Below, piece by piece: positions 40,687-61,600 of a stretch of DNA of 64,000 nt; positions within the stretch are counted from its first letter, which is position 1; every line of letters begins with the position of its first letter. The stretch is from a virus: positions 32,001 to 96,000 of IMG/VR virus record IMGVR_UViG_3300044612_001255; one strand, 5' to 3'. The translations under genes were made by a program, and so were the position numbers. The notes beneath the pieces were generated by a model. That model searched no databases. It worked only from the letters and a program-made list of their open reading frames with translations, and was not told the DNA's origin.

Positions 40687-43600
40687 ATGGCTGAGCAAGA
40701 AGAAGGTAACGTCAGACAGGAGTATAACAATGCCACCACAGGTCTGAATTTGGATCAGTCACTGAATCAAATTCAAAAGGGAAGGCTAACTTATGCTCTT
40801 AATGCTGCTGTTGAAAACTTTGATTCTAATTCTGTAAATTACCAAAACGAACTTGGTAACGAATTCTGTATTCGTGTACCTGAAGGATCTGTTATTATTG
40901 GTGAACACTTCATTGTAGAGAAGAATAAACATATATTCTTTGTTACAAATCCCACCACAGGAGATAGCCAAATTGGCTACATGGATAATAATGATTGTGT
41001 TTACAGAGTGTTAGTAAACGCTCTATGTTTAAACTTCAACATTAACTATCCTATACACAAGATTGTCCATAGAATCACAAACTGCAATACAGAGATTTAT
41101 TGGACAGATGGCTACAATCCTAGAAGATACTTAGACATTGATGACATTCCTAAAATATTAAGATCAGGAAGTCCTCTTTGTAGTCCAATCTATACAGATG
41201 ATCTTGATTGTAATCAACTCAAACTACAGCCTAATTTTAACATTCCTGAGCTAACAATTATTGATGTTGTCAGTGGTGGAAATCTTATTTCTGGTACATA
41301 TCAGTTTGCTGTTCAGTATTCTGATCCAGCTGGTAATCCTTTTACATCCTACTACTCGATCACCAATCCTACACCAATTGCTGATAAGTTTATTATAACA
41401 CCCAATTTCAATTACCCTGTAGGAAAGTCTATTGTTGTCAATGTTGATAACCTTGATACAACTGGACAGTTTGAGTATTTCAATCTTGCTGTAATTAAGA
41501 CAATCAATGGTGTTTCATCTGTTGATCTGGTTGGTACATATTTTATTGACAACAGCAATAGACAAATCACTTATACAGGTCAATCAACAATCATTCTTGA
41601 CATTGCTGACATCTTTGAGAAGTTCCCATTCTATGAAATTGCTCAAGATTTAACAGCTGTACAAGATGTTCTTGTATGGGATCAGTTAACATCTATTGAT
41701 AGAATCAACTATCAACAAATTGCTAATAGTATTGATTTGCTATGGGAGACTTGGAGAATTCCTCCAACAGAAAACTACTCAGACGAAATAAACGCAACAA
41801 ACTTAAGAGGATATCTTCGTGATGAAGTGTATGCTTTTGAAATAGTTTTTCTTTTAAAGAATGGAAAACAAACAGATGGTTTCCACATTCCAGGAAAAGC
41901 TATCTCATCGTACGAACAATTATTACCAAATATTCCTGATACAAGTCCAGACTTCATAGGAGAACCAGACCCAGTAACACATGATGCACCGTATTGGAAG
42001 ATTTATAACACAGCTTCTGTCACAGGATTCTCTCCAGAATATTCAACAAATGTTTCTTACAAGGGACCATATCAATTTGGGGAATTTGCCTATTGGGAAT
42101 CTGTTGAAGAATACCCATGTAACACAGACGTGTGGGGAAACCTTGCAGGACAAAAAATCAGACACCACAAGTTTCCAGATGTAAACATCTCACCTATTTA
42201 CGAAAGTAAAATCTTCTCAACATCACAATCAATGATGATGGGGAATGATGCTGTTTTCCCTATTGGTGTAAAACTTGATCCTTCTCAAATTTTAAACCTT
42301 ATACAAGTATCAAATCTTACAGATGATCAGAAAGCTGACATTGTAGGATTTAAGATAGTTCGTGGTGATAGAAGTGTTAACAAGTCTATTGTAGCTAAGG
42401 GTATTCTTAGAAACGTTGGTGAATACACAAGAGAAGACCAGTCGTTTTATTTCCCTAACTATCCATATAACGATCTTAACGAAGATCCATTCCTTACAAC
42501 AACAAACAATGCTTATCAGAGCGAGTGTGAACCATTTGATGTTTACATAACTAGTCTTGGTACAAATCCAGTTGATGGTTCTTCGTTAGCTAGAATTCAA
42601 TATTATTCTTGTGAGAACAACAAAATTACGTACAAAGATTACACCTCTACACAAGATGATGTGATCTGTGCTGTTGGTAAGCCAACAATTATTATTGGTG
42701 AAGGAGAAGTTGGGTATGCTAATTATGATATCTACACACTTGATGCTCCTGCTTTACAAACATTCACAGCATCTTATGATGATAGATTCTTGGGTCCAAC
42801 AACACTTAGTGTTGGGGCTAACGAGGATACTGTTGAGGTGGTTGCTGGAACAGCAGTGATATGTATAGAAAATTGCGATAATACTTTTTGGAGTCCTCAA
42901 ATAAGACTAATAGAACAAGTAAGATCTGCAACAGGCTGTGGTGGTACAACACTACTTGATGGTTTTAAAGATGAGAACAGATACAGACAAATCTTCAACT
43001 CTCCAGAGACATCATTTGGTCAACCATTCTTAGCAGACATTCTTAAGCTAGAAAGTGTAATGTTTGGTGCAGGCAAAGCCCACTTTGTAGAAGTAAGAGA
43101 CAACGCTAAATACAAACTGCTCAGTGAAGCTGCACAGAAGGCTGCTCTTGATAGTTCTGCAAAGCTTGGACAGATTACTACACCGTTCAGTGCAACAGCC
43201 ATGTTCACTGCATATCAGTCTTATTTGACTATCTACGTTAATGGTATTACTAGAAGAAACTATGCATACTCATTTAACTCTATTGCTGATTACAACTATG
43301 GTGTAGGTGTTCCTGATAATCAAGGAATCAAACAAAGAGAACTTGATATATCTAGATACTTAATCCCAGGTGTACAAGCTCTTGGTGATGATCTTCCAAT
43401 TAACAACTGGAACAGAGAAAGCTCTGTCTTTGTAAAAACAAACGAAGATACTACAGCTCTTCCCTATCCTGATCAGAGTCCAAACATGCTTTCTGGAACA
43501 ATAAGTATTGTTACAGATAGATCAAGATTCACTATTTCAGAAATAGGAAATTGCTCAACACCAGCTAAAGAAGAACCGATACAGGTTGTTTCATATTATG

Positions 43601-45747
43601 CATCATTGAAAGATTCAATCATCAATCAGTGGGGACAAATCTATTCATATGAAACAATTGATACAGGTTATCAATACATAATTAACTCACCTAATCCATC
43701 CACTACTGTGTTTGGTGGTGATACATTCATTAGCAGATTTGCATTCAAAACAAAGCTTCCATTCTTTATTGACAATAGAGTGAACGCTCCTGATGATAGC
43801 GACATCTTTTATGATGAAATAGGTAATGTTGCCTATCCTAGATACTGGCACTCTGCAAGATCTATTCTCGAGAACTACAGCATTCCTGGACAAGGAGTGA
43901 TGGCTAACATCATTTCTTATAAGGCACACAACTTTGACTGTCCTAATGAGGTGGGAACAGATGTGATTATATCTACATCTACCACCACTACCAGTACAAC
44001 TGTTTCACCAAGTGGACCTGGAGAAGTGACACCAAGCTCAACCATCACATACTATGATGGCTACTTCTATCTGTTTGCTTATGGTATTCCAAACTTCTAT
44101 TGTGAAAGCTCTTACAATGTTGATTTAAGACAAGCATTCAACAATAGAGAAGGAGAATTCTGGCCAAACGTTAGTACAGACATTCCAGATGATTGGGTTC
44201 AGGAAAGTTTTGTGCCTATTGCACAAGACAACACTTACTTCTATAACACCACATTCTCTAAGCAAAACAAAGAAAATACGTTCACTCATTTGCCTCCTGA
44301 CTGGGAATCAAGACTTTGCTTTACAAATTATCCATTTAGAACAATCTATTCTGATGCTCAAAACATTGATGCTGATAATAGAATAAACAACTGGCTTATC
44401 TATAGAGCTATCTCTTATTTTGATTTCCCACAGAACTATGGAAATCTTGTAAGCTTAGATGGTATACAGAACAAAGCTATTCTAGCTAGATTTGAGAACA
44501 AGTCACTATTGTACAATAATTTATTGACCATTGATACAAGCAACCCTCAAGCTGCTTATGTAGGTAATCCATTATTGTTCAGAAGTGCTCCTCCAATTGA
44601 CTTTGCTGAAACTGATCTTGGATATGTAGGAAGTCAGCACAAGATGCTTTTGAAGATTCCTCAAGGTCAAGTTACAGTGGATTCAAAAAGAGGACAAGTG
44701 TTCTTAGTACAAGGAACACAAGTGAATGACTTGTCTGCATTTGGATCAGGAATGAACAGATTCTTTGTTGAGCATCTACCATTCATGATTGATAATAACT
44801 TCCCAGATGTGAATATTGATAATCACTTCAAGGGAATAGGACTACATGGTGTTTATGATGCTGTATATGATAGAGTGATTATTACAAAACTTGATTATGC
44901 ACCAAAGTCAAATAACATTCTGTATGATCCAGTTGAACAAAGTTTCTACATCAATAACATTGTTAATGGCCTAACTATTAGACAAGATGTTAGTCTTAGT
45001 GATGAAGAATACTTCTGCAACGTATCCTGGACACTATCTTTCAACATGAACACAAAGAGTTGGATAAGTTTTCATAGCTATATCCCAAACTTCTACATTG
45101 CAGAGAATAACTTCTTCTATTCTGGACAAAACAATTGCTGTGAAGACTTTGATTTCTTAGTGGGTGTATTGGTTCCTAATCCAACCACTACTAGTACAAC
45201 ATCAACAAGTACGTCTTCTACATCAACCACTACAACAACAATTGCTCCTTTGCAGTGTAACATTACAGCTACAGTTATAGAAACAAATTGTTCTCTAGCT
45301 GGAACTGGAGTGATTCAACCTTTAAATTGTAATTTGGAAGGAGAAGGTGAATATGTTAATACAACTACTACTACCACATCAACCTCTACCTCTACAACTA
45401 CAACAACTACTAGTTCTACAACTACTACCACAACATCAACTTCTTCAACAACCACTACAACTACAACTGCTGCACCAACTACAACAACAACTACCACTGC
45501 CACCCCAACAACAACTACAACAACTACAGCTTCACCATATAGTGGAGGTTGTGGAAAATATACGTTATTTGACGAAGGGGATCCTGCTGGATCAACATTT
45601 GAATATTATGCTTTCCCAAGTGGCACTTTAACTACAGTGAGTGTTCCATTTGGTGGAACAGGAGTGGTAGTTCAGGCTTACACAATTCCAGGAATAATAT
45701 TAATATCAGGAGATGGTGGTTCATCAGGACCTACAGAATGTACATAA
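40687..45747 (+). CDS. muzzle / tail stabilisation protein (N-terminal part) with poly-Thr C-terminal extension
   Basis: GLNLD, IYWTDGYNPRRYLDI, GYLRDEVYAF, IRHHKFP, FGGDTFI, WTLSF..KSWISFHSY.P. Confidence 0.75.
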   Translation: MAEQEEGNVRQEYNNATTGLNLDQSLNQIQKGRLTYALNAAVENFDSNSVNYQNELGNEFCIRVPEGSVIIGEHFIVEKNKHIFFVTNPTTGDSQIGYMDNNDCVYRVLVNALCLNFNINYPIHKIVHRITNCNTEIYWTDGYNPRRYLDIDDIPKILRSGSPLCSPIYTDDLDCNQLKLQPNFNIPELTIIDVVSGGNLISGTYQFAVQYSDPAGNPFTSYYSITNPTPIADKFIITPNFNYPVGKSIVVNVDNLDTTGQFEYFNLAVIKTINGVSSVDLVGTYFIDNSNRQITYTGQSTIILDIADIFEKFPFYEIAQDLTAVQDVLVWDQLTSIDRINYQQIANSIDLLWETWRIPPTENYSDEINATNLRGYLRDEVYAFEIVFLLKNGKQTDGFHIPGKAISSYEQLLPNIPDTSPDFIGEPDPVTHDAPYWKIYNTASVTGFSPEYSTNVSYKGPYQFGEFAYWESVEEYPCNTDVWGNLAGQKIRHHKFPDVNISPIYESKIFSTSQSMMMGNDAVFPIGVKLDPSQILNLIQVSNLTDDQKADIVGFKIVRGDRSVNKSIVAKGILRNVGEYTREDQSFYFPNYPYNDLNEDPFLTTTNNAYQSECEPFDVYITSLGTNPVDGSSLARIQYYSCENNKITYKDYTSTQDDVICAVGKPTIIIGEGEVGYANYDIYTLDAPALQTFTASYDDRFLGPTTLSVGANEDTVEVVAGTAVICIENCDNTFWSPQIRLIEQVRSATGCGGTTLLDGFKDENRYRQIFNSPETSFGQPFLADILKLESVMFGAGKAHFVEVRDNAKYKLLSEAAQKAALDSSAKLGQITTPFSATAMFTAYQSYLTIYVNGITRRNYAYSFNSIADYNYGVGVPDNQGIKQRELDISRYLIPGVQALGDDLPINNWNRESSVFVKTNEDTTALPYPDQSPNMLSGTISIVTDRSRFTISEIGNCSTPAKEEPIQVVSYYASLKDSIINQWGQIYSYETIDTGYQYIINSPNPSTTVFGGDTFISRFAFKTKLPFFIDNRVNAPDDSDIFYDEIGNVAYPRYWHSARSILENYSIPGQGVMANIISYKAHNFDCPNEVGTDVIISTSTTTTSTTVSPSGPGEVTPSSTITYYDGYFYLFAYGIPNFYCESSYNVDLRQAFNNREGEFWPNVSTDIPDDWVQESFVPIAQDNTYFYNTTFSKQNKENTFTHLPPDWESRLCFTNYPFRTIYSDAQNIDADNRINNWLIYRAISYFDFPQNYGNLVSLDGIQNKAILARFENKSLLYNNLLTIDTSNPQAAYVGNPLLFRSAPPIDFAETDLGYVGSQHKMLLKIPQGQVTVDSKRGQVFLVQGTQVNDLSAFGSGMNRFFVEHLPFMIDNNFPDVNIDNHFKGIGLHGVYDAVYDRVIITKLDYAPKSNNILYDPVEQSFYINNIVNGLTIRQDVSLSDEEYFCNVSWTLSFNMNTKSWISFHSYIPNFYIAENNFFYSGQNNCCEDFDFLVGVLVPNPTTTSTTSTSTSSTSTTTTTIAPLQCNITATVIETNCSLAGTGVIQPLNCNLEGEGEYVNTTTTTTSTSTSTTTTTTSSTTTTTTSTSSTTTTTTTAAPTTTTTTTATPTTTTTTTASPYSGGCGKYTLFDEGDPAGSTFEYYAFPSGTLTTVSVPFGGTGVVVQAYTIPGIILISGDGGSSGPTECT
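45184..45528 (+). repeat. poly-Thr/Ser coding repeats (ACN)n
   Basis: two tracts, including a ~55-codon T/S/P-rich run. Confidence 0.9.
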
Positions 45748-45758
45748 TAATATAAATT

Positions 45759-46217
45759 ATGAATATACTACTAACATTAACAACAGCTGGGACAGACACG
45801 GGCCCATTTAATCTCTTCTCTGATGTAGATGCTTACAATACAGCATTTGAAACAGGCGTACTTAAATCAGCTCTTGTAGCTGGTTACTTAACATCGCTTG
45901 CTCCTATTGGTACTGCAATTGTTCGTATTCAATCTACGGGTTCTTGTACAAACTTTATTGATGTAGTTCTTACTAATGTGACTACCACTACAACAACAAG
46001 TACGTGTCCTACATATTATGAACTTGAAGGATGTGATCCAGCAGATTATGCATTTACATTACTTGTACCAAATCTTGGTGCGGGTCAACGATATGTTCTT
46101 CCTGGCCCACCAATTAAGTATTATACATACTCAGGAGCAAGTATAACTACTTGTACAGTTCCAGTTCCATATAACAGTTCTATTATACAAACACTAGATA
46201 TAGGATGCCCGTCATAA
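45759..46217 (+). CDS. 'GPF-domain' protein with poly-Thr linker and C-terminal Cys domain
   Basis: LTLTTAGTDTGPFNLFSDVD...CTNFIDVVL + TTTTTTST. Confidence 0.7.
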   Translation: MNILLTLTTAGTDTGPFNLFSDVDAYNTAFETGVLKSALVAGYLTSLAPIGTAIVRIQSTGSCTNFIDVVLTNVTTTTTTSTCPTYYELEGCDPADYAFTLLVPNLGAGQRYVLPGPPIKYYTYSGASITTCTVPVPYNSSIIQTLDIGCPS

Positions 46218-46218
46218 C

Positions 46219-47085
46219 ATGTCAAAGACAATCACTATAAAGCTAACAAAAACAGGCCCTAACTCAGGGCCTTTCACCATCACAGATGCGTATGGGAATG
46301 TTATTGCCTCAGGTGTAACACTTTCACAAGTGACTACAGGGATTAGTTTCATTGTAGATGATAGTGTTAACTTGATTACAATCACATCTGAAGGAAAATG
46401 TGCTTATGAAAAATCATTTGCTGTTACAACTATTACACAAGATCAATATCAAAACACTCCTTTAGAAACTATTCAAACAGCCTGTGTATGGAGACATCTT
46501 AATAACCATGCAATATATAATGTATTCTATGGATATACAGAACCATACATTATTGAATATCCTTTTGCATATCAATACCAAGATGAGATATTACAGAATG
46601 TGAAAGATTACACTAAGGTGTACAAATACTTTAATGATCCGTATGGTATATCAAATGATGTGTCAAGAATAGAACTTGACAATATATGGTTTAACAAATC
46701 TGTTCTTTACAATGGACAACAGAGTACAGGTGTATTGGAGCTGGTACCAAAACCAATAAACAATTTGAAATCCTACTTACAATATCCTATATTAAATGCT
46801 GAAAGCAAGACTATTACATTTACCAAGAGTGATAACTTCTATCAGTATAATACATTCTGGTCTGTAGTTAAAGACAAGAGCATACCACTCTTTGTTAGAA
46901 CATGTCAATCACTTTCTCTTGATAAAGAAGTGAATCAAATCAATATGGACTATGGACCAAGATCATTTAAGAAAGAACCTCTGAGAGCTAAGGAATTGAA
47001 AATCAGACACATTCTTGATAATAAATCAGACGCTCATTTAGTTTCACAATTCATCATCGCACCCGCACAGATTAGTTACAAGTAA
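46219..47085 (+). CDS. divergent GPF domain fused to muzzle-like C-terminal region
   Basis: IKLTKTGPNSGPFTI N-terminus; VWRH..YNVFYG..PYIIE..FNKSVLYNGQQSTGVLEL...LRAKELKIR. Confidence 0.6.
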   Translation: MSKTITIKLTKTGPNSGPFTITDAYGNVIASGVTLSQVTTGISFIVDDSVNLITITSEGKCAYEKSFAVTTITQDQYQNTPLETIQTACVWRHLNNHAIYNVFYGYTEPYIIEYPFAYQYQDEILQNVKDYTKVYKYFNDPYGISNDVSRIELDNIWFNKSVLYNGQQSTGVLELVPKPINNLKSYLQYPILNAESKTITFTKSDNFYQYNTFWSVVKDKSIPLFVRTCQSLSLDKEVNQINMDYGPRSFKKEPLRAKELKIRHILDNKSDAHLVSQFIIAPAQISYK

Positions 47086-47086
47086 T

Positions 47087-50056
47087 ATGAAAGGATGGTT
47101 AGATAACTTTGGTAAAGCAGACAACGCTAATGATTCAAACGTTAGCCTTCCTGAAGGTTTTGTTGGACTAGGATATAACACTAAAGGAAGAAACTATTCT
47201 CCTGCATGGGGAGGACAGTTTCAAGGTGGTGGAAAACTTATTCCAGTTTCTCCAATGCAACAGATCACTGGCGAAACACCTACTATTTCCCCAACTGTCC
47301 CATATTTACAAACAAAAGATCCAGCAGAGTTTTATAAGTCTTGGATTCAAAGTCCTGAATATGAACGAAGATTAAAATCTACAGGATACTCAGATGTTCC
47401 TAATAAACAAAGGGTTGATGAACTTTCACAAATAGAACAGGTCAAAAAAGAAAGACTAGGACTTTTAGAAAATATTCAACCTTTAGAATATGATCCATCT
47501 AAAAGATCTGAAGCTATAATTGATTATTACGATGGGTCAACTATAAATGTAAATCCTTCAGATTATAAAACCTTTTCTAAACAATCTGTTGAAGCACACG
47601 AAATTGCACATGTTGCCACTCCTACAAGTACAATGTCTAATGACGAGTTTGGAATTTTTATGGGATCTATGCTTCCTTTAAAAAAACCTATAGTGTCTGG
47701 TGTACAAGGATCTAAAGAAAGAGAGGCTAGTAAAGAAGCTGTTGGAGATTTTGAACACTTGGGAAAACCATGGGAAGCAAAAGCTGATTTAGACGCTCTT
47801 CGATTCATGATGTACGACAAAGGCATCTATGATATTACAAAAGGAAAGAAGTTTACAGAATCAGATTTTGAAAAAGCAAAACAAAGTTTTGGGAAAGAAA
47901 GAGTTTTCAAAAGATTCACTGATAGAATGGGCAAGAAGAACTTTGTCAACTTGATGAACACTATTGCTAAAGCAGATGGTGAAGAAGAATTACCAATGGC
48001 AATGGGTGGTATGTCTATTCCTGGTTCTGTAGGATTCACATACGCACGTACAGCTGGTTCTGCTCCTAGTAAAGGAAAGTATGCAAAGAAGACGATGGCT
48101 TCTGCACAGAATGGTATTATGTCTCCAATGTTATTGGCAAGAAATGTTTTAAACTATTTCTATCCTAATGAAGAAGCTGCACCAACTGTAGAGGCAGCAC
48201 CGTCAGACTATAAGAAGGGATTAACAAACGAGCTTCTACAAAGACAAGCATATAAAGAATCAACATTCAATCCAGCTGCTGTTTCCCCAGCGGGATACAA
48301 AGGTCTTACACAGATTGGAGAAGGTGTTTTAGAAGATTATTCTAATAAGAAAGGTGGAAAGAAACTAGATCCATTCAATCCAAAAGATGCTGTAGAGCTA
48401 CAGAAGTTTGCAATGAATGATTTATACAATGCTAGCTTCATCAACAAACCTGATCAATCTGATAGTGTAAGAATTGCAAAAACTCTAGCTGCCTATAATT
48501 GGGGAAGAGGGAACCTATCTAATTATCTCAATGAACAAAAGAGTAAGGGTGTAGATATATATGATTCTTACGATTGGTTAAACAACCTTCCAAAAGAAAC
48601 TAGCGATTATGTAAATAAGATTCTTCTCCAGGAAGATCCATCATTTAATAAGAACTATAAGAAAGCTTCTACAAATCCAAAATACGAAGAGGTGACATCT
48701 CTGTATGATCAGAAGAAGTTTGGTGGCGACATCCCTTCTGCACAGAATGGTCAAGAAATGAAATTCTATCAGAATGGATTGGATTGGAAACCAAAGAGTA
48801 TGCAGGATGGTGGAATAACTAAAGACAATCAAGGATATTGGAATCCAGAAAATTGGGGAAAGCCTGTAGAAATAGATTCTAATGACATAACAATGGAAGG
48901 TGTATACGAACCCCTTCTTGGTGTGTCTGACACTGGTGACACTAAGCTAATGAAGCCAGGAAAGAATTATAAATTCAAGGGTAAGAAAGTTAGAGAGTAT
49001 CCTGTAGCCCAGTATGGAAAAGGCATACCATTTAAAGATGCTGCTAATAATCCAAAAGATCCAGCAGATCCTATTCGTAAAGATTTGGCACCACCTATTA
49101 GACCAAAAGCATCTTTTGAAGAACAGAAAAGAATAGCAAAGTTAGAACTTGATAAGTATGGTTATACATCAGACCAACGTAAGAATTACGTTAAAGGTAA
49201 ATCTGAAAAAGCATTCAGGAATATTGTTCCTCAAGGATATGGAGATTTAACACAAACACTTGATAGAATTGATAGATATGAAAAAGATTTAGGAAGAGAT
49301 CCAATGGAGACTCTATGGTATGGTTCAGAAAGTAGTTCAACAGGAAAACCAATATATTACGATCTTCCTAAAAGAGATGATGCTTTTGCTTTGTATCTAG
49401 GGTTGCCTCAAAAAAATAAAAGCTTTGGCATTTCTGAATATCAACCAGGCGATTCGAAAGAAAACAAATACTATTTCAAACCTAATTACTTAGATGAAAA
49501 TTTAAAAAATCGTCTAGTTGCTTCATATTTTGACAATGTGGATGATAATGAAAATGTTTATATAGCAAATGAAAGAGGTGATGCTTTTCCACAAAAAACT
49601 GATTCGTTGGAAAGGGAAGGAGTTCCTTTTGAAAATCCAATGTATGCTGAGTGGATGGTAGATAACCCTCTTGGAGATTTTAAAATGTCCAAGGGTAAAG
49701 ATAAAAAGGGTCACTATATTTCTATTTATGATGAATGGGATTTGAATCCTTTTAAAGAAGGTAAAGGTTCATCAAGTAATCCAGCTGCTGCTACATTAAA
49801 AGCATTTGCTAAAATGAAAGGAGTAGACGTGAGTGATGACCTAGAAATTTCAAAGCTTTTTGGAGCTGGTAAACCTTTTGAGATATATGATAGAATTTAT
49901 TATGATCCAAAAACTAAAAAAGTGATTCCTGAGAAAAGAAATGGTGGTGGTGTGGGAATCAATCAATTAGATGCTCAACCCATGAAAAAACTAAATCAAT
50001 TACTTAACTTTACAAATAACCCAGACAAGGATAACTGGCTGGATAAATACAACTGA
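47087..50056 (+). CDS. modular virion cargo protein: zincin-like peptidase + SLT lytic transglycosylase + unknown domain
   Basis: HEIAH..E (47597-47611); KESTFNPAAVSPAGYKGLTQI / LAAYNWG / ETSDYV SLT motifs; recurring xQxG(G) motifs. Confidence 0.8.
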   Translation: MKGWLDNFGKADNANDSNVSLPEGFVGLGYNTKGRNYSPAWGGQFQGGGKLIPVSPMQQITGETPTISPTVPYLQTKDPAEFYKSWIQSPEYERRLKSTGYSDVPNKQRVDELSQIEQVKKERLGLLENIQPLEYDPSKRSEAIIDYYDGSTINVNPSDYKTFSKQSVEAHEIAHVATPTSTMSNDEFGIFMGSMLPLKKPIVSGVQGSKEREASKEAVGDFEHLGKPWEAKADLDALRFMMYDKGIYDITKGKKFTESDFEKAKQSFGKERVFKRFTDRMGKKNFVNLMNTIAKADGEEELPMAMGGMSIPGSVGFTYARTAGSAPSKGKYAKKTMASAQNGIMSPMLLARNVLNYFYPNEEAAPTVEAAPSDYKKGLTNELLQRQAYKESTFNPAAVSPAGYKGLTQIGEGVLEDYSNKKGGKKLDPFNPKDAVELQKFAMNDLYNASFINKPDQSDSVRIAKTLAAYNWGRGNLSNYLNEQKSKGVDIYDSYDWLNNLPKETSDYVNKILLQEDPSFNKNYKKASTNPKYEEVTSLYDQKKFGGDIPSAQNGQEMKFYQNGLDWKPKSMQDGGITKDNQGYWNPENWGKPVEIDSNDITMEGVYEPLLGVSDTGDTKLMKPGKNYKFKGKKVREYPVAQYGKGIPFKDAANNPKDPADPIRKDLAPPIRPKASFEEQKRIAKLELDKYGYTSDQRKNYVKGKSEKAFRNIVPQGYGDLTQTLDRIDRYEKDLGRDPMETLWYGSESSSTGKPIYYDLPKRDDAFALYLGLPQKNKSFGISEYQPGDSKENKYYFKPNYLDENLKNRLVASYFDNVDDNENVYIANERGDAFPQKTDSLEREGVPFENPMYAEWMVDNPLGDFKMSKGKDKKGHYISIYDEWDLNPFKEGKGSSSNPAAATLKAFAKMKGVDVSDDLEISKLFGAGKPFEIYDRIYYDPKTKKVIPEKRNGGGVGINQLDAQPMKKLNQLLNFTNNPDKDNWLDKYN
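48099..48751 (+). repeat. exact 17-bp direct repeat CTTCTGCACAGAATGGT flanking the SLT module
   Basis: copies at 48099-48115 and 48735-48751, both encoding SAQNG in frame. Confidence 0.9.
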
Positions 50057-50057
50057 T

Positions 50058-52817
50058 ATGAAGGCTGAAATTTTAAAGATAGCAGGTGTTAAGTCTGAGA
50101 AAGAATTTTACAAAAAATTCCCTACAGAAGAATCTTTTATAAAGGTTCATGGGAAAGCTTTGAAGAAAGCTCAAATGGGAGCTATGATTCAAGGTAATCA
50201 ATCCCCTCAGACTAATCCTCAACCAATCAACTTTCAACAGTTGTATGACCAGAATGATATGTATATCACTGGTTCGACACAAGACATGCGTAACAAGCAA
50301 GCTCAAGATCAAGCAAGCCTTGCTGCACAACAACAGGCAGCTAATAAGAAATCAGGAATTGCTGATGCGATTGGTCAGATAGGTAGCATGATGGGTGGTA
50401 GTGGTAAAAATGGCAAAAAGTTAAAGAAGGCTCTTTTTGGAGATGAAACATTACCAATGGGTAAACCAGGCATGTTTGGCAATCTTGGTAAAGGTATTAG
50501 TGCAGGTGTTAGTAAAGCTGGTGGACCAATGGCTGTTGCTCAAGCAGCTGGTGATGTAGTTGGAGGATTCCAACAAATGAAGAATGAAAAACAAATAATG
50601 AAACAAGCTCAGCAAATGGCTGGTGTAAGTGATGTTGCTCTTCAAGCTTCCATGACACGTCCTGAGCAAGTTCAGAAAAAATATGTACGTCCAGAAGACA
50701 ATATTAATACAGGACAAGAGTTCTTTCCTATATATGGTACAGGAACTGTTCTAGCAAAGAATGGTACAGAAATAGCAAATACGTTTGCTCCTAATACTAT
50801 TTATACAGATTTAGAAGAAGCTCAGAATGGCATAACCAAGTTTGCACAACAAGGTGGTGGAGATGCTCTTTCCCAACTCACTGCTGGACTAGGAAGTCCA
50901 AAGGGACAAGGTATTAGCGGTGGAGGAAAAATTGGAGGTGGTATTGGAAGTGTAGCAGGTACAATTATTGGTGGTCCAGTTGGAGGTATGATTGGAAAGT
51001 TTGCTGGTCAAACTATTGGTAATGTCCTAGATAAAAAAGCTGAAAAGACAGAGGCTTTCAATGAAAAAACTCAAGGTAACATTGAACAGATGGCTCTTGG
51101 TCAAGGAGCACAATCTCTTCAACAAGCAAACGCTTCTTATATGAGAGATGGTGGTATGGCAAATCCACAAGTAATTAATCAGTTTGGTAATTACAAATTG
51201 AGTCAATTGTTACAACCTGATCCAACAATGGATACATTACGTGCAGGTGGGCATTTAAAAAGTTACACTCCTCCTAGCGAACGTGCAATGTATACAGGAA
51301 GAGATAAGTTTGCCATGGGTGGTGATCTTAAAACTCATTGGGGTGGATATGCAGAACCTATGTCTTACAATCCATATCTTCCTGAAGGAGGAGAAACTGT
51401 AATGTTCAGAGGTCAGTCTCACGATGAGTCTGATGGAAAAGGTAATACAGGTATTGGAATCACTTATGGTGATAGTCCTGTAGAAGTGGAAAGAGGAGAA
51501 CCAGCTATACAACTTAAAAATGGTACAGATGGAGACAATAGTCTTACTGTATATGGTAATTTAGAATTGTCAAAATCTAATGCTGAGCTGATTGGTATGC
51601 CAGATCAAGCAAAAAGAAAGTATAAGAATATTGTTGATGATTTAAACAAGAAAGAACAGAAACAAAATAAAATTATAGAAAAGTCTGTTACAGAACTTGA
51701 CAAACTAGATTTAAACAATCCTTACAATATACTTTCTTTTGAATCTCGTAAAGCTAGTTTGCTTGGAGCTAATATGAATCTTAAAAAGATTGCTGATCAA
51801 AAAATAAAACTAGCTGACATGCAATCTGCAACCAATGACACTGCTGAAGAGTATGGTTTTGAAGCTGATGCTTTAGCAAAGGGTAAAGTGAAACAAGCTA
51901 AGAAAGGAGCTTCTATTAAGAAAGCTCAGGGTGGAACAGATGAGACATATGATGCTGCTAAAGATCTAGATGAAGCTGTTGTAACTGGTACACGACTTCC
52001 AACACTGCAAGAACTAAGAGATTTTAAATTGGAAAAAAGTAATCTTCCAAGAATTGCACCATTCAGCACAGCATCTAAAGAAGATGGTGAATTTGATTGG
52101 ATGACAATTGCTAATCAGATTCTTCCTTATCTAAGACCAAGTGATGCGGAAGAACTTGATCCACGTCAGCTATCTGGAGAGATGCTTGCTCTTGCTCAAA
52201 ATCAATTAGAGCCTGTACAAGCACAAACTTTCCAGCCACAACTAAGCACACCTTATGATATTTCTCTTCAGGATATTATGAATAAGAACCAAGCTGATTA
52301 CAGAGCTGCTGTAAGAAACACTGGATATAATCCAGCTGCATTAGCTATATTGAATGCACAAAAATACGCAGCTAATCAACAAGTGCTTGGTGAGCAGTTT
52401 AGATTGAATCAAGCTATGAGAGATAAGGTGTATGGTGAGAATAGAGCAATGCTTAACGAATCTAATCTTAAGAACCTCGGTATCCTTGATGAGCAATACG
52501 GAAGACAGCAACAAGCTCTTTCTAATACAAAAGCTACAGCACAAGCTGCTCTTAATTCTATCTCTGCTAAATATCTACAGAACGAAGCTTCAAATAGAGA
52601 GCTTCAAGCATACGAGAACCTTTACAATTTTAGATCTGGTCCAAAAGGAATAATGCAGAATATGAATCCTCTTGCTCAGTTCAACACTGCATTAGGAAAC
52701 TTATCGTCTGCTCAAATTGAAGAAGTGCTTAAACTTAAGAAAGACGAAGAAGCTAAAAAAAATAAGCCCACTGTTACAAAAAATGGTGGTCTTGTACGAG
52801 CAATTAAATCCATGTAA
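50058..52817 (+). CDS. virion cargo/ejection protein with Gly-rich membrane-like segments
   Basis: GGIGSVAGTIIGGPVGGMIGKFAG, GQSHDE...VEVERGE motif, many AQxG/xxGG motifs. Confidence 0.65.
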   Translation: MKAEILKIAGVKSEKEFYKKFPTEESFIKVHGKALKKAQMGAMIQGNQSPQTNPQPINFQQLYDQNDMYITGSTQDMRNKQAQDQASLAAQQQAANKKSGIADAIGQIGSMMGGSGKNGKKLKKALFGDETLPMGKPGMFGNLGKGISAGVSKAGGPMAVAQAAGDVVGGFQQMKNEKQIMKQAQQMAGVSDVALQASMTRPEQVQKKYVRPEDNINTGQEFFPIYGTGTVLAKNGTEIANTFAPNTIYTDLEEAQNGITKFAQQGGGDALSQLTAGLGSPKGQGISGGGKIGGGIGSVAGTIIGGPVGGMIGKFAGQTIGNVLDKKAEKTEAFNEKTQGNIEQMALGQGAQSLQQANASYMRDGGMANPQVINQFGNYKLSQLLQPDPTMDTLRAGGHLKSYTPPSERAMYTGRDKFAMGGDLKTHWGGYAEPMSYNPYLPEGGETVMFRGQSHDESDGKGNTGIGITYGDSPVEVERGEPAIQLKNGTDGDNSLTVYGNLELSKSNAELIGMPDQAKRKYKNIVDDLNKKEQKQNKIIEKSVTELDKLDLNNPYNILSFESRKASLLGANMNLKKIADQKIKLADMQSATNDTAEEYGFEADALAKGKVKQAKKGASIKKAQGGTDETYDAAKDLDEAVVTGTRLPTLQELRDFKLEKSNLPRIAPFSTASKEDGEFDWMTIANQILPYLRPSDAEELDPRQLSGEMLALAQNQLEPVQAQTFQPQLSTPYDISLQDIMNKNQADYRAAVRNTGYNPAALAILNAQKYAANQQVLGEQFRLNQAMRDKVYGENRAMLNESNLKNLGILDEQYGRQQQALSNTKATAQAALNSISAKYLQNEASNRELQAYENLYNFRSGPKGIMQNMNPLAQFNTALGNLSSAQIEEVLKLKKDEEAKKNKPTVTKNGGLVRAIKSM

Positions 52818-55629: not shown

Positions 55630-58600
55630 ATGGAAGAAGAAAATGTTGTAAACCCTAAAGGAGTTTCTAATGAAATTCCTTATCCAATAATTCCTAACAA
55701 TCCTGGAAATCAAGTGCCTGGAGAACTTCCTTCTGCAAGGGAAGCTTTTGCCAAATTAGCTGAGCAAAATAGATTTACTGGAGCCCAGAACATTCCTATT
55801 TCTTCTTTCTATTCTGGGGGTAACAGATATGGAAAAACAAGACCATTTACTAATTTCGAAGAAATGGCTGCACAAAAGCAGTCTGGATTTGATCAAGTTA
55901 GAAATGGTCTTGGAAAGGCAGTGGGTATTGCTGGTACGTCTTTCATATCTGGTACAGTTGGATTATTAAATGGTATAGGTTCTTCTATTGCTAACCAACA
56001 GTTTTCTAAACTGTATGATAATCCTACAACACAGTTTATGGATAGGCTTCAGAAGGGTATGGAAGACTATGCTCCTAACTATTATAGACAAGCTGAGACA
56101 GATGCTGAATGGTGGCAATCAGATAACCTACTAACTCCTAACTTCTGGGCAGATAAGGTTATAAAAAATATTGGTTATGGAATTGGTTCTATAGCTGGTG
56201 GTGCTGCTTGGACTAAAGCATTCAAGTTAGTTGGTAAAGCAAATGCTTTAGTTAAACTTGGCAAAGGTGCAGAGACTGCTGCTACCATTGAGAAGGCTAT
56301 GCAGGTTGTTCCTAGGGCACAAAAAATATCAGCTATTGAAGGTGCGTTAGGAAATCTTTCCCAAGGTATAAAGTCACAAATTACAAATAATGGACAACGT
56401 ACATTAACGTCTGTCATGGGTACGTTTGGTGAAGCTTCTATTGAATCTTTGCAAAAGTCAAATGAGTTTAGAGATAATGCTATTGCTGAATTTAGAAGTC
56501 AAAATGGTATAGATCCAACAGGGAAAGATCTTGATGACATAAATGCATTTGCTGAGAAGGCAGGTAATTATGTATGGGGTATGAATACTATTCTTCTAAC
56601 TGCATCAAACTATATTCAACTTCCTAAAATCTTAGGTTCTTCTAGAAAGGTGGAGAAAGCATTCATCAATGACTTAACACAAAAAGGACTTGGTAAAGAG
56701 TTTATTGAAAAAACTGCAAAAACAAGATTTGGAAAAATAGTAGATACAACAAAAGGTTTGGGTAGATTCTTTATTCAACCAACAGAAGCTGCTGAAGAAG
56801 GGATGCAGTTTGCAATTGCTTCAGGTGTTGATGATTATTTTAACAGAGCCTACACTAATAGAGAAGATCTTGGAACATTCCTAGAAACTATTTCTGGAGC
56901 AATGGGAAATGTATTTGGAGAAGGCATTGATAAAACTCTAAGTACAAAAGAAGGTATTGAAAGTATATTAATTGGTTCTCTTGCTGGAGGTATTCAGCAA
57001 GCACCAATGTCTATTTATAGAGAAGGACTTACTGGCAAAGGTGGGCAAAGAAAAAGAAATACTGACATTGCTCTTAAGCAGCTCAATGAGACAAACATTG
57101 CAGCATCATTAAAAGACCAAGCTAACTTCTTGGCTGTTGGTATAGGTTCTCAAACAATGCGTCAGCAGGCAATAGAGAACAATGATATTCTTTCAGAAAA
57201 AGATTACGAAGCTGATTACTCTCTATCATACTTGATGCCTCGTGCGAAGTATGGTAAGATGGAAAATGTTTATGAAGAACTTGAATACTACAAAGAACAA
57301 GCATTAAATCCTCAAGGCTTTGCAGAATTGCAAACTGCTGGTGTAGCTTTTGAAAAAGAGTCACCTGCACAATTTGTACAAAGAATTGGAAATCTTGAGA
57401 ATACAGCAAAGGCTGTACAAAAGCACTACGATAATATTAATGAAACCTATGCAGGTGTTTTTAAGACAGATGCAGATGGTAAGATTATTGAAGATGCAAA
57501 AGGAAGGCCTATAAGAAAATACAATCCTGTAGTAGTGGATAAACTTGTTTATGCAGCAAGTAAGATTGATGACTATTCAGCAAGAATTCCAGGACTAACA
57601 TCAGTGTTATCTAGTGCAGGTATTAATATTTCTACAATTCTAAATGATGTTCTAGTATCAGAGAAACCTACCATTGAAGCTGTAAAAGAATCCATTGATC
57701 AAATCAATGCAATGGATGTTGTTAGCGATGTTAAGGATAACTTGAAAAGATCTCTATCAGACTTAATCGAAATGTCACTTAGAAGAAAAGTGTTCATTGA
57801 TGATTATAATGATATAAAAAAGAATCCAGAAGTTTTTGAAGCTTTTAGTAGAGCTGAAAGGTTTCGTGAGAAAGGACCTGTAGATGTCACTCAACAAGAA
57901 GGTGGAAAGTCAGTAGTAAAAACTTTAAAGGTGGGCCAAGAGTATTCTTTGGCTGAGCCTATTAGACTTGAGAATGGTAAAATAACACTTGCTCCAAAGT
58001 TTACAATAATTTCTGAAACATTAGGTGGAGAGTTTGAGGTGAGACTTCCTAATGGTAAAGAAGTATTTCTTTCACCACTAGAGTTTAAAACATATAATAT
58101 ATCTGAAGAAGACAACACTTCCCAGGAATTTGAAAATGCATTGAATCAATCTATTGATGACGTACTTCAATATCCTGCCTTTAGAGACGTTATTGAGAAG
58201 CCAGGAGAAAAGGTAAACAAACTTGCATACATTAACTCTCTTGGCAATCAAAAGCTCAGCGAAGCTGTTGTAAATAGATTTAAAAGACTTACTAAAGATA
58301 TTGTTGAATTAAAAGCTAAGCAGAAAGAAGTCGATAATAAAATAAAGGAACAAAGTTCTGACATTAATAGTCAACAAGATGAAGAGGCTCAAGCATCAAC
58401 TGATCCAAAGGTTGAGCTGATTCCATTCGATACACGAATTGATACAGGAGAAACTGGTCCTTTAAAATCTGCTGCTAGATTCTTTAATGCAAGTAGTAAT
58501 GAATCTGATGATCCTAATTATAAATATTACAATCCTAATCCTTCTCCACACATTATTCGTGCTAGAGTATTTTTGAATAATGCTAAGAGCAATAAAAATA

Positions 58601-61600
58601 GAGATAAGTTTAGAGCTATAACATTTACGTACAACCAAGAGAATGATCTTGGACTTTCTGGAGTTACACAACTATCATACGGTGCTAATTGGGAAACTCA
58701 AAAAGGAACTGTCAATGACCTCATTGATGGATTCATAGCACAAGTGTATGTAGAGGTGGATGGCAAGAACAGATATTTTATTGACCAGAATGGCAATAGA
58801 ATAAAAGGTGCTGATGGTAAGGATGTGAAAGTGGGTCAACAAGTTGATCTAGGGAAAGTTGTATTTGAGACACGTCCTACAGCAAGAGAATACAATAGCG
58901 ATAATAGCGATAGATTCAGAACTCGTCAGAAAGAAGAGTTTATGGATAATATGGAAACTTGGAAGCAGCAGAGAGAAATCTTGTTAGGCAATCCTGCCAA
59001 ACAAATGGCTCCAATGGCTGCAAAAGATCTTCCTACTAATTCATTCATGATCTCTAAAGGTTTTCCACTTATCACTGAAAAGGTAGATGGAAAATATGTT
59101 AAGAATAAAGTAGGTGACACCCTTATTACAGAGTCTCAAATTGAAACTCAATCAGGACTGTTGAAGATTTCAACAGGAACTCCTATTGTACACAGTGGTG
59201 AGAACATGAATGCTAAACCTGGAATAGTGTATCTACAAGATAGAGATATGCTACAGGTTCTTAATAATAACTTGTTAGGTGCTAAGAAAGGCAAGTCAGT
59301 GTATGAAGTGATTAAGTCACTCATCAATGACATGCAGCAACAAGCAGCTGATGATAAACCTATACAGTTAGATAGACAAAAACTTAAGTATCTAGGATCT
59401 GTAATGATTTATGCACGTCCTACAAAAGACATGTTGAATAATCAATTATGGATTGATATTGATTCTATGTCTGTAATGCTTGGTAACAATTCATATTCAT
59501 TCAGTGATTTCTTGAAGAATGAAGCAGACGTTATCAAAGCTTTCTCTAGCGTATATCATTCTGCAAATAAAAGATTACTAGATAAGGCTGAACCTCATTA
59601 CGAGTTTGTCTTCAAGGATGGTAAACTAGACTTTGTCAAGTGGCCAAACTATCAATCCTACTTACTATCTGGAACAGATAGATCTGTAGATGAGGTACCA
59701 TTTGTAACTAATGTTAGAAAGAAATCTGACGCACTTCCTTACAACTTTAGAGGTAAGTATGCATATATATCAAACTTCACTGTAGGTGAAAAGAATACAA
59801 ACTTCACAGCCCCAGAAGCTCAAGAAGAAAAAGCTCCAGTAGCTCCTCCTATAGAAAGTAAGTCTGAAAGTAATTCTCCTTCAGAAGTAGCTGAAGCTCT
59901 TCCAGTTTTAAACGTGGGAGGATTCACGCTTAACAATGGTTCTACGAATATTGTAGAAGTGTCTAAGCAGCCTATTGAATTCATTGGAACAGTGAATGAG
60001 AAGGGACAGATTAAAGTGGATTTAGATTTTAGAACAGAAGCAAATCAAAAATCTTTTGAGAATGTTGCTGCTGTAATTTCAGAAGAAACATTAAATACAT
60101 ATAGAGCAGCTATTCCTCAGCTGAATGAAAGTTCTTCCAAAGAAGATACTATTGTTGAATTCTTTAGATATCAAATAACAGCTAAGATCAACAAAGCTCT
60201 TAAGGCTCAACAAGAAGCTTCAGCTCCTGCTGCTCCAGTTGTTCCTGCTTCTGATATAGAAGCTAAGAAATTTGATATAGAAAGTTTATTTAGTATAAAT
60301 GCCCAGTCTATAATAGATAACAAAGCAGATATACTTTCTAATCCTACTAAATATGAAACTACTCAAACTGTAGGAAATGTTACAACAGAACAAACTGTAG
60401 ACGTTTCAAAAGGAAACATAACAGTTATACAACGTATCTCATCTAATGATAAATCAATATCTTTTTCTAATCGTATTTATTTAAGTTCTAAGGGTGAAGT
60501 TTCTTCTATAATATCTAGAGAAGGGGGAATATCTTTCTTTAAAGATAAGTCAGGGGTTGTTAATGAAGAAGCCAAATTAAAAATGGTAAATCTTGCGGAA
60601 ACAGTAAAAAATTACTTCCCTGAAATCTTTAGTAAAATAGAAGAATATGCTAAGAAGTATAAAGGATTTGTAACTAGTACTGATAACTTTAGAGAAACTG
60701 TTAGACAAACAAAATTTATAGATGCTTTTGATTCTTTCTTATATAATAAAGATTTACTATCAGATGCAGACTTTGCAAGAATAACTTTACATAATGCAGA
60801 ACTAGCTGCTCTAGAAGGTGCTGCATCTACTGAACAAGTATCTAGTAAACAAGTAGAACTAGATCAATATTTAGAGAATGTAGATTACAGACCACAAAGC
60901 TTAGATCTAGTTGTGTCTAATAGTGGTGTTGATAAATACACAGTTATCGAAGCTGCTAAAAATGTAGAAGAGGCTTCTAATAAAAAATATGGATTTGGTA
61001 GCATTATTCATACACTTAAAGTAACAGGAGGTAATTTAAACTATCCAAATACAACGAAGCCTGAGAGAGAAAGAATACGTTTATATAACGAAGAACTTGC
61101 AAAACTTACAGGCAAACCTGTTGAACAACCAACACCTCCTGCACAACAACCAGCAGCTGAAGCACCTCCAAAATCTAACAAAGGTAAATTCAAGTCTGGA
61201 TACAGTGATACAAGAGCTGTATCAAAAGGAGAACTATTTGCTGAGAGAATCTCTGACAGAGACATTAAAGCATTTAAAAAATGGCATGCTGAGAAAGTAC
61301 CATTCATACCTTATGAAATCCTTGAACAGATTTACAAATCACTTGATGGTATTGTTGCATGGGGTGTGTTTGAAGGAGGAGTTGCTAAGTTCTTCAAACG
61401 TGGTTTGCGTGGTACAGAGTATCATGAAATATTTGAAGCTATATGGAAGGGATTTCTTTCAGAATCAGAAAGAGCTGCACTCATTGATGAGTTTAAAAAT
61501 AGACCTGGTTACTTCTTAGATAGAGAGTCTGGTCAACAGATTGCTTTTTCTGAAGCTACAGACAGACAAGTTAAAGAACGTATTGCTGACGACTTTGCTG

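Follow-up and report, generated by a model that had tools for sequence, protein, structure and literature searches.

Phages inject proteins together with their DNA, and the evolution of the injected enzyme sets is poorly understood, especially in the abundant and mostly uncultured crAss-like phages. This question is raised by an open reading frame (ORF) in a 64,000-nt stretch of viral DNA (the window; positions 32,001 to 96,000 of the IMG/VR record IMGVR_UViG_3300044612_001255), whose product of 989 amino acids (aa), designated P0001, carries a zincin metallopeptidase-like domain, a lytic transglycosylase (SLT) domain and a third folded domain of ca. 300 aa, separated by short glycine-rich motifs. 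Do these motifs delimit exchangeable cassettes on a common scaffold? Our analysis indicates that P0001 is a conserved core of ca. 205 aa (pieces N0, L1, L2, C1 and Ct) loaded with whole modules at four fixed junctions, that the modules probably are exchanged by recombination, and that the protein probably is cargo.

The ORF is open throughout, and all eight motifs listed in the initial annotation are exactly where it had placed them: FQGGG (aa 45–49, nt 47219), MAMGG (aa 304–308, nt 47996), SAQNG (aa 339–343, nt 48101), KFGG (aa 544–547, nt 48716), a second SAQNG (aa 551–555, nt 48737), MQDGG (aa 572–576, nt 48800), AQYG (aa 641–644, nt 49007) and KRNGG (aa 950–954, nt 49934). The related motifs that it had reported at both protein ends, MKGWLDNF and NWLDKYN, are also present and are conserved among homologues. 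Within a single protein this series is weak evidence, the enrichment being mild: Q.G or GG occurs 17 times versus 9.8 ± 2.9 in shuffled sequences (P about 0.015) and AQ.G three times versus 0.21 (P 0.002), and there are look-alike motifs inside the modules at aa 409, 423 and 786, none of which is a boundary. The comparison of homologues is decisive.

A search of 5.8 billion proteins returned 1163 matches of near-query length, many of them (593–1711 aa long) 85–95 % identical to P0001 over only 22–65 % of the query; a second search, limited to shorter proteins, gave 684. The homologue sets used here are the best-scoring 120 of each, and nearly all of the sequences are metagenomic. Of 320 internal ends of BLASTP alignments (identity of 60 % or more), 278 (87 %; 8.5 % expected) are no more than 3 aa away from one of the eight motifs, and all clusters of break-points with more than two supporting ends sit on a motif. 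Segment starts and stops concentrate at aa 49–51, 305–315 and 339–343 (the two limits of L1), 544–558, 570–588, 644–648 and 944–956, the commonest break-point being that of L2/MQDGG, where alignments end at aa 576 and begin at aa 573. This clustering agrees with the earlier view that the large modules are delimited by motifs, and their assignments as zincin, SLT and 300-aa domain hold.

One motif grammar describes the 120 homologues: N0 (..AWGGQFxxGG), slot 1, L1 (GG-MSIPGSVGFTYART..KKTMASAQNG), slot 2, L2, slot 3, C1, slot 4 and Ct. Modules in slot 2 each end with [FY]GGxIPSAQxG, and L2 then reads QEMKFYQNGLDWKPKSMQxGG; those in slot 3 end with QQKNGG, followed by C1 (ITKDNQGYWNP..EYPVAQxG), and those in slot 4 with KRNGG, followed by Ct. 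Cutting at these anchors, which are regular expressions derived from the same homologue data, and clustering the pieces produced 44 segment clusters, and the 95 complete long homologues show 70 architectures. The same module family can occupy several slots, as occurs with the zincin (slots 1 and 4) and with relatives of the 300-aa domain (slots 3 and 4), and relatives carry other modules, several per slot, or none. The homologues are therefore not collinear, their boundaries are on the motifs, and different domains or empty sites appear at the same motifs, as expected from the small conserved scaffold with interchangeable cassettes that had been proposed from the sequence of P0001.

The core also exists free-standing. 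Of 118 listed matches from the search for shorter proteins, 66 have both an M..WLD start and a WLDKYN-type end, which marks them as complete, and their lengths are 204–542 aa. The shortest, P0279 (204 aa, from a 69-kb contig), is N0-L1-L2-C1-Ct without any insert; it is collinear with aa 1–49, 307–343, 556–644 and 950–989 of P0001 (215 aa in sum), and P0001 is therefore the core plus three inserts. Free-standing scaffold proteins have 204–225 aa and consist of the pieces singled out in the initial annotation (the N-terminal ca. 45 aa, GSVGFTYART, NQGYWNP..ITMEGV and the C-terminal ca. 35 aa), and the lengths of complete forms grade continuously from 204 to over 1700 aa. When the 204-aa core was used to map all insertions of 40 aa or more from 233 homologues, ca. 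95 % of these 239 insertions were at the four junctions: 74 at core positions 45–52 (after QxGG), 50 at 78–86 (SAQNG), 93 at 90–106 (around KSMxDGG) and 12 at 169–175 (before GINQL), with 10 elsewhere.

The scaffold pieces differ in structure and share a high conservation. N0, L1, L2 and Ct are predicted to be disordered or a single helix, with a predicted local distance difference test (pLDDT) score from below 30 to 40. C1 has nearly invariant columns and is modeled by AlphaFold entirely as strands (pLDDT 75–84), with weak structural matches of beta-sandwich or cupin-like type (Z 4–5). The L2 stretch retains 90–97 % nucleotide identity in divergent loci, and Ct is 91–97 % identical even where the remaining parts are ca. 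40 % identical, the 34 aa that follow KRNGG being about 97 % conserved. In Pfam and PHROG, the bare scaffold and C1 matched no family besides a weak match to phrog_36695.

Some further observations concern these pieces. The last 34 codons of the P0001 gene and the first ca. 27 codons of the next gene (49934–50140) form one DNA block, 82–94 % identical in loci with far more diverged surroundings, which could be a regulatory element, a recombination element or a strongly constrained peptide. In five loci (L075–L079), an 82-aa ORF (about 6935–7183 in L076, L078 and L079) matches the C1 part alone, with 41–55 % identity to aa 124–195 of P0279; from this similarity, the C1 domain may also occur as a free-standing small protein. 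A G-WLD-x-[FY] element is found at either end of the protein and also at certain boundaries within homologues: P0055, P0061, P0066, P0116 and others, with modules of cluster c3, contain an internal FGFQxxGG-WLDSxxSFGKN, comparable to AWGGQFQGGG and MKGWLDNFGKA, and in certain homologues AWLDNYREGG stands between C1 and Ct. These recurring elements that resemble the N-terminus hint at past fusion of tandem genes.

Exchange at the junctions can also be followed in the DNA. A locus found twice (L001 = L072) matches the window with 97.6 % identity over 41098–48813; for the muzzle, 152-aa and 288-aa proteins the identity is 99–100 %. Beyond the final base of MQDGG the similarity is lost: a module of 425 aa is inserted there, and the sequence resumes at ..KNGG-ITKDN; slot 3 of the resulting protein, P0007, holds a second HExxH module and slot 4 is empty, the reverse of the window. 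Break-points in the DNA of other loci are at 47224, 48014, 48804/48813, 49008 and 49953, and region identities differ strongly within single genome pairs. In three further loci (L002, L029 and L030), the SLT-L2-C1 stretch has 90–94 % DNA identity (94 % in protein) whereas the flanking genes have ca. 75 %, and this contrast suggests that a segment delimited by SAQNG and AQYG was transferred recently.

In the window, the SLT module is bracketed by two exact copies of a 17-nt sequence with a spacing of 636 nt, or 212 codons; by our estimate, the chance expectation for an exact 17-mer pair in 3.1 kb is about 3e-4. If these copies recombined, the result would be the SAQNG-QEMKFYQNG join of many SLT-less homologues. 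Similar in-frame repeats of 15–17 nt are present in L002, L021 and L027, in the last case around a module that is not an SLT. No paralogues or stored cassettes were found elsewhere in the same genome. The coordinates of all features are collected in Table 1.

Table 1. Features of the P0001 gene and its surroundings, in positions of the window.
Feature	Position (nt)	Strand	Details	Basis
crAss-type muzzle protein gene	40687..45747	+		Pfam PF25731 crAss_MUZ, E 1.7e-32
989-aa mosaic cargo-type protein gene (P0001)	47087..50056	+		ORF and translation; homologues; fixed locus position
Scaffold N0	47087..47233	+	aa 1–49, MKGWLDNF...AWGGQFQGGG; slot 1 after GG	Conserved; alignment ends at aa 49–51; pLDDT <30
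Slot 1 module, zincin metallopeptidase-like	47234..47995	+	aa 50–303; HEIAH aa 171–175 (nt 47597–47611)	Conservation, fold
Scaffold L1	47996..48115	+	aa 304–343, MAMGG-MSIPGSVGFTYART...KKTMASAQNG; slot 2 after SAQNG	Near-invariant; predicted disordered
17-nt in-frame direct repeat, left copy	48099..48115	+	CTTCTGCACAGAATGGT, encodes (P)SAQNG	Repeat search, 100 % identical
Slot 2 module, SLT lytic transglycosylase	48116..48715	+	aa 344–543; E-S motif, Glu391 (nt 48257–48259)	Pfam PF01464
Module-end connector and scaffold L2	48716..48814	+	aa 544–576, KFGG-DIPSAQNG-QEMKFYQNGLDWKPKSMQDGG; slot 3 after MQDGG, empty here	
17-nt direct repeat, right copy	48735..48751	+		Repeat search
Scaffold C1	48815..49018	+	aa 577–644, small beta-rich domain ITKDNQGYWNP...EYPVAQYG; slot 4 after AQYG	
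Slot 4 module, ca. 300-aa domain	49019..49933	+	aa 645–949	703 relatives; model
Scaffold Ct	49934..50056	+	aa 950–989, KRNGG-GVGINQLDAQPM...NWLDKYN and stop	Conserved
Second cargo-type protein gene	50058..52817	+	919 aa, Gly/Gln-rich with GG motifs, mosaic between loci	
Large ORF similar to crAss-like phage RNA polymerase subunit	55630..63999	+		tblastn

What do the modules encode? Across 93 segments homologous to the zincin (24–97 % identity), conservation of H171, E172, H175, E187 and E230 is 95 % or higher, E187 and E230 being candidate third zinc ligands. Its folded core (aa 74–295, pLDDT 70–86) has as best structural matches only zinc proteases, of the families M13 (Zmp1, PepO, neprilysin, ECE-1) and M34 (PPEP-2, lethal factor), and these matches are modest (Z 5–7, root-mean-square deviation 3.5–5.2 over 111–162 residues; Foldseek E at least 0.07). 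No Pfam family was matched, including the polyvalent-peptidase models. The SLT module scores 43 bits with PF01464 over aa 376–488 (cut-off 21.3, E 3.9e-11), has KESTFNP with Glu391 as its E-S motif, and matches PHROG families of internal virion proteins (including 'internal virion protein with endolysin domain'), lytic tail proteins and endolysins. It is missing from many homologues, in which SAQNG joins QEMKFYQNG directly.

At E ≤ 0.001, the family of the 300-aa domain comprises 703 representatives. Many of these stand alone as proteins of 250–450 aa, often with a hydrophobic N-terminal stretch (P0121–P0267), and the nearest ESM Atlas clusters of the domain are viral. Residues D121, Q131, D228, D238, E288, Y290 and R292 (domain numbering) are invariant, and the family shows the motifs RxDAWRLYLGLPQ, YISYYDxWDL and GKPFEIYDRIYYDP. 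The domain is modeled as a single folded unit (pLDDT 79, predicted template modelling score 0.81). The query and ten relatives had no Pfam match, and 43 relatives scanned singly gave scattered weak ones; against the PDB, a sequence-profile search found nothing, Foldseek gave E values of at least 0.3 and a VIA wide search Z of at most 2.4. A colicin M-like lipid II phosphatase was considered from VIA matches to pectocin M1 and syringacin M (Z 2.2–2.4) and an Atlas feature score of 0.79 for a Colicin_M cluster; this lead is too weak to use, and no Pfam or PDB profile match to colicin M was obtained. The domain is missing from most homologues, where C1 joins Ct directly, and others have a related module in slot 3.

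Structure prediction, which the initial annotation had suggested for each module, bore out the zincin and the 300-aa domain as folded units but not the SLT, which is poor in the AlphaFold model of the whole protein (mean pLDDT 47.5; usable for the zincin and C1), probably due to the mosaic alignment. Among the inserts of 14 homologues, PHROG and Pfam identified only SLT, ART-PolyVal (PF18760, in P0101 and P0026) and a Cellulophaga 'tail protein' family corresponding to the zincin; the Atlas gave an LPD23 cluster as a weak lead (score 0.86).

The position of the gene suggests how these enzymes may be used. The record holding the window is a complete virus genome of 108,291 bp with direct terminal repeats, with a plus-strand block of P22-like portal, Crassvirus major capsid protein and Crassvirus muzzle genes. 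The P0001 gene is separated from the muzzle gene by two small ORFs (152 and 288 aa in related loci) and is followed by two ORFs of ca. 920 aa each and a very large one, the N-terminal part of which is similar by tblastn to a 'putative RNA-polymerase subunit' of cr128_1 and cr85_1 (E 4e-21); Pfam and PHROG scans of this large ORF gave no match. P0001 is thus encoded between the muzzle and the RNA-polymerase-subunit-like genes, as a cargo gene of the crAss001 gp45 type would be. A further 29 viral loci have the same order, muzzle / (152-aa ORF) / 288-aa ORF / P0001 gene / cargo 2 / cargo 3; in them, muzzle identity is 55–99 % and the P0001-type gene encodes from ca. 380 to 1319 aa, the ends of some locus ORFs having been set automatically. 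The gene is the form taken in the window by a conserved gene of crAss-like phages, always located 3′ of the muzzle gene. Among cultured phages, those of Leptolyngbya, Cellulophaga and Flavobacterium have the most similar muzzle proteins, at 25–34 % identity, and the phage of the window therefore belongs to an environmental lineage of crAss-like phages.

The crAss001 proteins whose genes lie between those for muzzle and RNA polymerase are packaged cargo (PMC10172136). More distant cultured phages supply a second indication. The zincin shares 29.7 % identity with the C-terminal part of gp042 of Cellulophaga phage phi17:2, whose gene is directly 3′ of the muzzle gene and whose zincin region is preceded by YAQAGG; the phi4:1 counterpart of this protein, gp041, is annotated as a virion protein from tandem mass spectrometry. 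The same annotation was given to phi4:1 gp040 (L044, 18127–20814), the counterpart of phi17:2 gp041. The latter (L020, 25127–27814) has a C1-like N-terminal start, the five [FY]QxGG motifs of which NFQAGG, SYQNGG, TFQIGG and KFQSGG are examples, and a C-terminal KWGG. As judged from these sequences, the [FY]QxGG punctuation reaches distant, cultured relatives.

These data show folded modules inserted in frame at four Gly-rich, predicted-disordered junctions, situated after QxGG, SAQNG, KSMQxGG and VAQxG; in the phage of the window, slot 1 holds a zincin, slot 2 an SLT and slot 4 the 300-aa domain, and slot 3 is empty. The diversity would arise from recombination between phages and from unequal recombination within the gene, in both cases at junction sequences, and exchanges would keep the frame because the junctions recur in the same reading frame. 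From gene position and the distant relatives verified by mass spectrometry, we infer that virions carry the protein and eject it during infection. The core would serve for packaging, docking and threading, its conserved pieces, by analogy with gp45 of crAss001, perhaps holding the protein in the virion and letting it thread out, and the inserts would be the payload: the SLT would open peptidoglycan, the zincin would either process the chain itself or target proteins of the host, and the ADP-ribosyltransferase and other modules of relatives would act in host take-over.

Several points weigh against this reading. Module frequencies in the homologue sets are biased towards those shared with the query, most modules lack Pfam or PHROG annotation, and the evidence for the virion presence and ejection of P0001 is indirect, as just described. 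A tblastn search (E ≤ 1e-5, 50,697 phage records) matched no isolated Bacteroides crAss-like phage, the only matches being those of the SLT to a Stenotrophomonas phage. Break-points at domain borders are also expected from selection for viable in-frame products alone. In addition, codon identity at identical residues is 75–84 % in linkers and modules alike, only Ct being higher (94 %); a nucleotide-level homogenization of the linkers was rejected, as there is no special signal for it. Since the codon identity of the linkers is no higher than that of the modules, the junction peptides are apparently kept by selection at the protein level, and their role in anchoring recombination may be a consequence of this conservation rather than its cause. 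The earlier suggestion that the motifs may be recombination anchors agrees with the DNA break-points and in-frame repeats at the motifs but is not proven, because selection alone could leave the same pattern. The other roles suggested for the motifs in the initial annotation, in capsid loading and in proteolytic release, are hypothetical.

P0001 could then belong to an ordinary multidomain family with generic flexible Gly-rich linkers, its break-points being the in-frame exchanges that survived at domain borders. The unexceptional synonymous sites of the linkers fit this explanation, as do the occurrence of the loose motif inside modules without a boundary and the commonness of protein mosaicism in phages (PMC10684548, PMC8954989). 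We nevertheless consider it unlikely: L1, L2 and Ct are 85–100 % identical where modules are 38–65 % identical, the connector [FY]GGxIPSAQxG recurs after unrelated modules, several independent genes have exact in-frame repeats of 15–17 nt, the core is found by itself, and [FY]QxGG recurs in a distant Cellulophaga virion protein. Chimeric assembly of metagenomes through the repeated junction sequences is a very improbable origin of the mosaic forms. Metagenomic origin and the recurrence of junction sequences within and between genomes would favor such artefacts; however, the exact repeats are only 15–17 nt long, architectures recur independently in three samples (L054–L056), in five samples (L065–L069) and in 23 member sequences (P0026), the window comes from a complete genome with terminal repeats, and all forms keep the frame and the conserved termini.

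A different possibility, compatible with a core loaded with modules and adding one step to it, is a self-processing polyprotein similar to MARTX, in which the GG/AQxG junctions would be cut by the zincin of the same chain, in the capsid or in the host, so that each module would be freed as an enzyme of its own. Of the 101 complete forms with 550 aa or more, 99 contain at least one HExxH, compared to none of 95 shuffled sequences, and long forms without the slot 1 zincin mostly have another HExxH module elsewhere (clusters 3, 16 and 17). Additionally, the junctions are predicted to be disordered and would be accessible, and Pfam profiles S78, S77 and C48 (HK97-, T4- and Ulp1-type maturation proteases) found nothing in the complete 108-kb genome, although weak or novel types could escape them. 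Zincin autoprocessing has been proposed for polyvalent proteins, and DdrB and DarA of P1 are processed (PMC5512222); the same source describes that the virion RNA polymerase of phage N4 carries such a peptidase and is packaged uncut. Against self-processing, moreover, single-module forms (300–540 aa) mostly lack HExxH (4 of 41 have it at 350–550 aa), the near-length list is biased to the zincin of the query, and cutting at GG and AQxG would free the scaffold as small peptides, a poor fit to a docking role. We regard this explanation as possible but on balance unlikely. The idea of the zincin as an obligatory module was not retained either: 94 of 95 long forms have HExxH, but mid-length forms mostly do not and the list is query-biased, so that the pattern is only suggestive. 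It is rather doubtful that the junctions are doubly used, as recombination anchors in the DNA, through which co-infecting phages would swap, gain or lose payload modules, and as recognition peptides by which the zincin would release payloads after ejection, in a self-processing, re-loadable platform that docks through its ca. 205-aa core.

How does P0001, as a core loaded with exchangeable modules, relate to known systems? The closest concepts are the polyvalent proteins (Iyer, Burroughs, Anand, de Souza, Aravind 2017) and mosaic ejection proteins. Polyvalent proteins combine zincins, lysozymes and ADP-ribosyltransferases in changing arrangements on one chain; they are predicted to accompany the DNA into the host cell, possibly with self-processing (PMC5512222). 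Like P0001, with its zincin, SLT and third folded domain, they have several unrelated enzyme domains per chain, including lysozyme or transglycosylase domains, and their domain order is highly variable among homologues, here with 70 architectures in 95; the ART-PolyVal signature occurs in homologues P0101 and P0026, not in P0001 itself. Unlike them, the P0001 family has a core of ca. 205 aa, four fixed junctions, a punctuation motif and an insert-free form, and a text search of PMC5512222 found neither 'linker' nor 'crAss'.

Cargo protein C1 of crAss001, gp45 (Bayfield et al. 2023, PMC10172136), is encoded at the same locus, 3′ of the muzzle and 5′ of the virion RNA polymerase genes. Its short structured segments on portal, tail barrel and muzzle, with long unresolved stretches between them, resemble a docking core with flexible links, and a text search of that paper turned up no enzyme domains or domain swapping for it. 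No similarity between gp45 and P0001 was detected by tblastn at E ≤ 1e-5, and fold searches, made with a poor whole-protein model, listed no crAss001 chain. In addition, gp45 has a predicted transmembrane helix, whereas none was predicted in P0001 (highest 19-residue Kyte-Doolittle mean 1.08).

Ejection proteins of the T7 gp16 type (Swanson, Hou, Cingolani 2022, PMC8954989) are internal virion proteins that, like P0001, carry an SLT, which opens the peptidoglycan. In T7-like phages the hydrolase domain moves between ejection proteins, described as 'mosaically modular' (PMC8954989), and the shuffling of protein fragments is general in phages (PMC10684548). The likeness is limited to the SLT: one domain and two proteins are involved in T7-like phages, versus dozens of modules, four slots and one core in the P0001 family. 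An insert-free small core, four punctuated junctions and very high combinatorial diversity in a crAss-like cargo locus were not found in PMC5512222, PMC8954989, PMC10684548 or the literature searched. Variable multi-enzyme phage chains are known; the defined core with four fixed junctions appears to be new.

Outside phages, MARTX toxins and polymorphic toxins (Rhs, CdiA) have effector arrays or exchangeable ends with conserved junction motifs and recombination, and an internal protease of MARTX cuts between effectors. These toxins are bacterial and secreted, and their repeats and delivery routes are unrelated; the P0001 family has a putative zincin protease and no immunity genes.

The locus provides a simple rule, one small core and four junctions with folded domains added in frame, which accounts for a large unannotated pool: ca. 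40 module families, almost none with Pfam or PHROG annotation. These families are candidates for functions in early host take-over, in breaching the envelope and in anti-defence. Two questions become testable, which segments target the protein to the virion and whether the payload is released by cleavage, and the naturally empty slots suggest insertion sites for reporters in the study of protein delivery by these phages.

Two other genes of the window deserve mention. The site between portal and capsid genes is a frequent location of scaffold or protease genes, and here it contains a 413-aa ORF (29544–30785) that had no match in a Pfam scan. The second cargo-type gene, immediately downstream of that of P0001, encodes many GG and AQxG-type motifs, with KKAQMG, EEAQNG, FAMGG and TKNGG near the C-terminal end, and a glycine-zipper-like hydrophobic stretch at ca. 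aa 285–335 with a weak DUF456 match. Its blastn breaks between loci are at ca. 50137–50332, 50824–50841 and 51928–52089, and loci L007 and L008 have ca. 2 kb extra between the equivalents of window positions 51928 and 52077, inside this gene.

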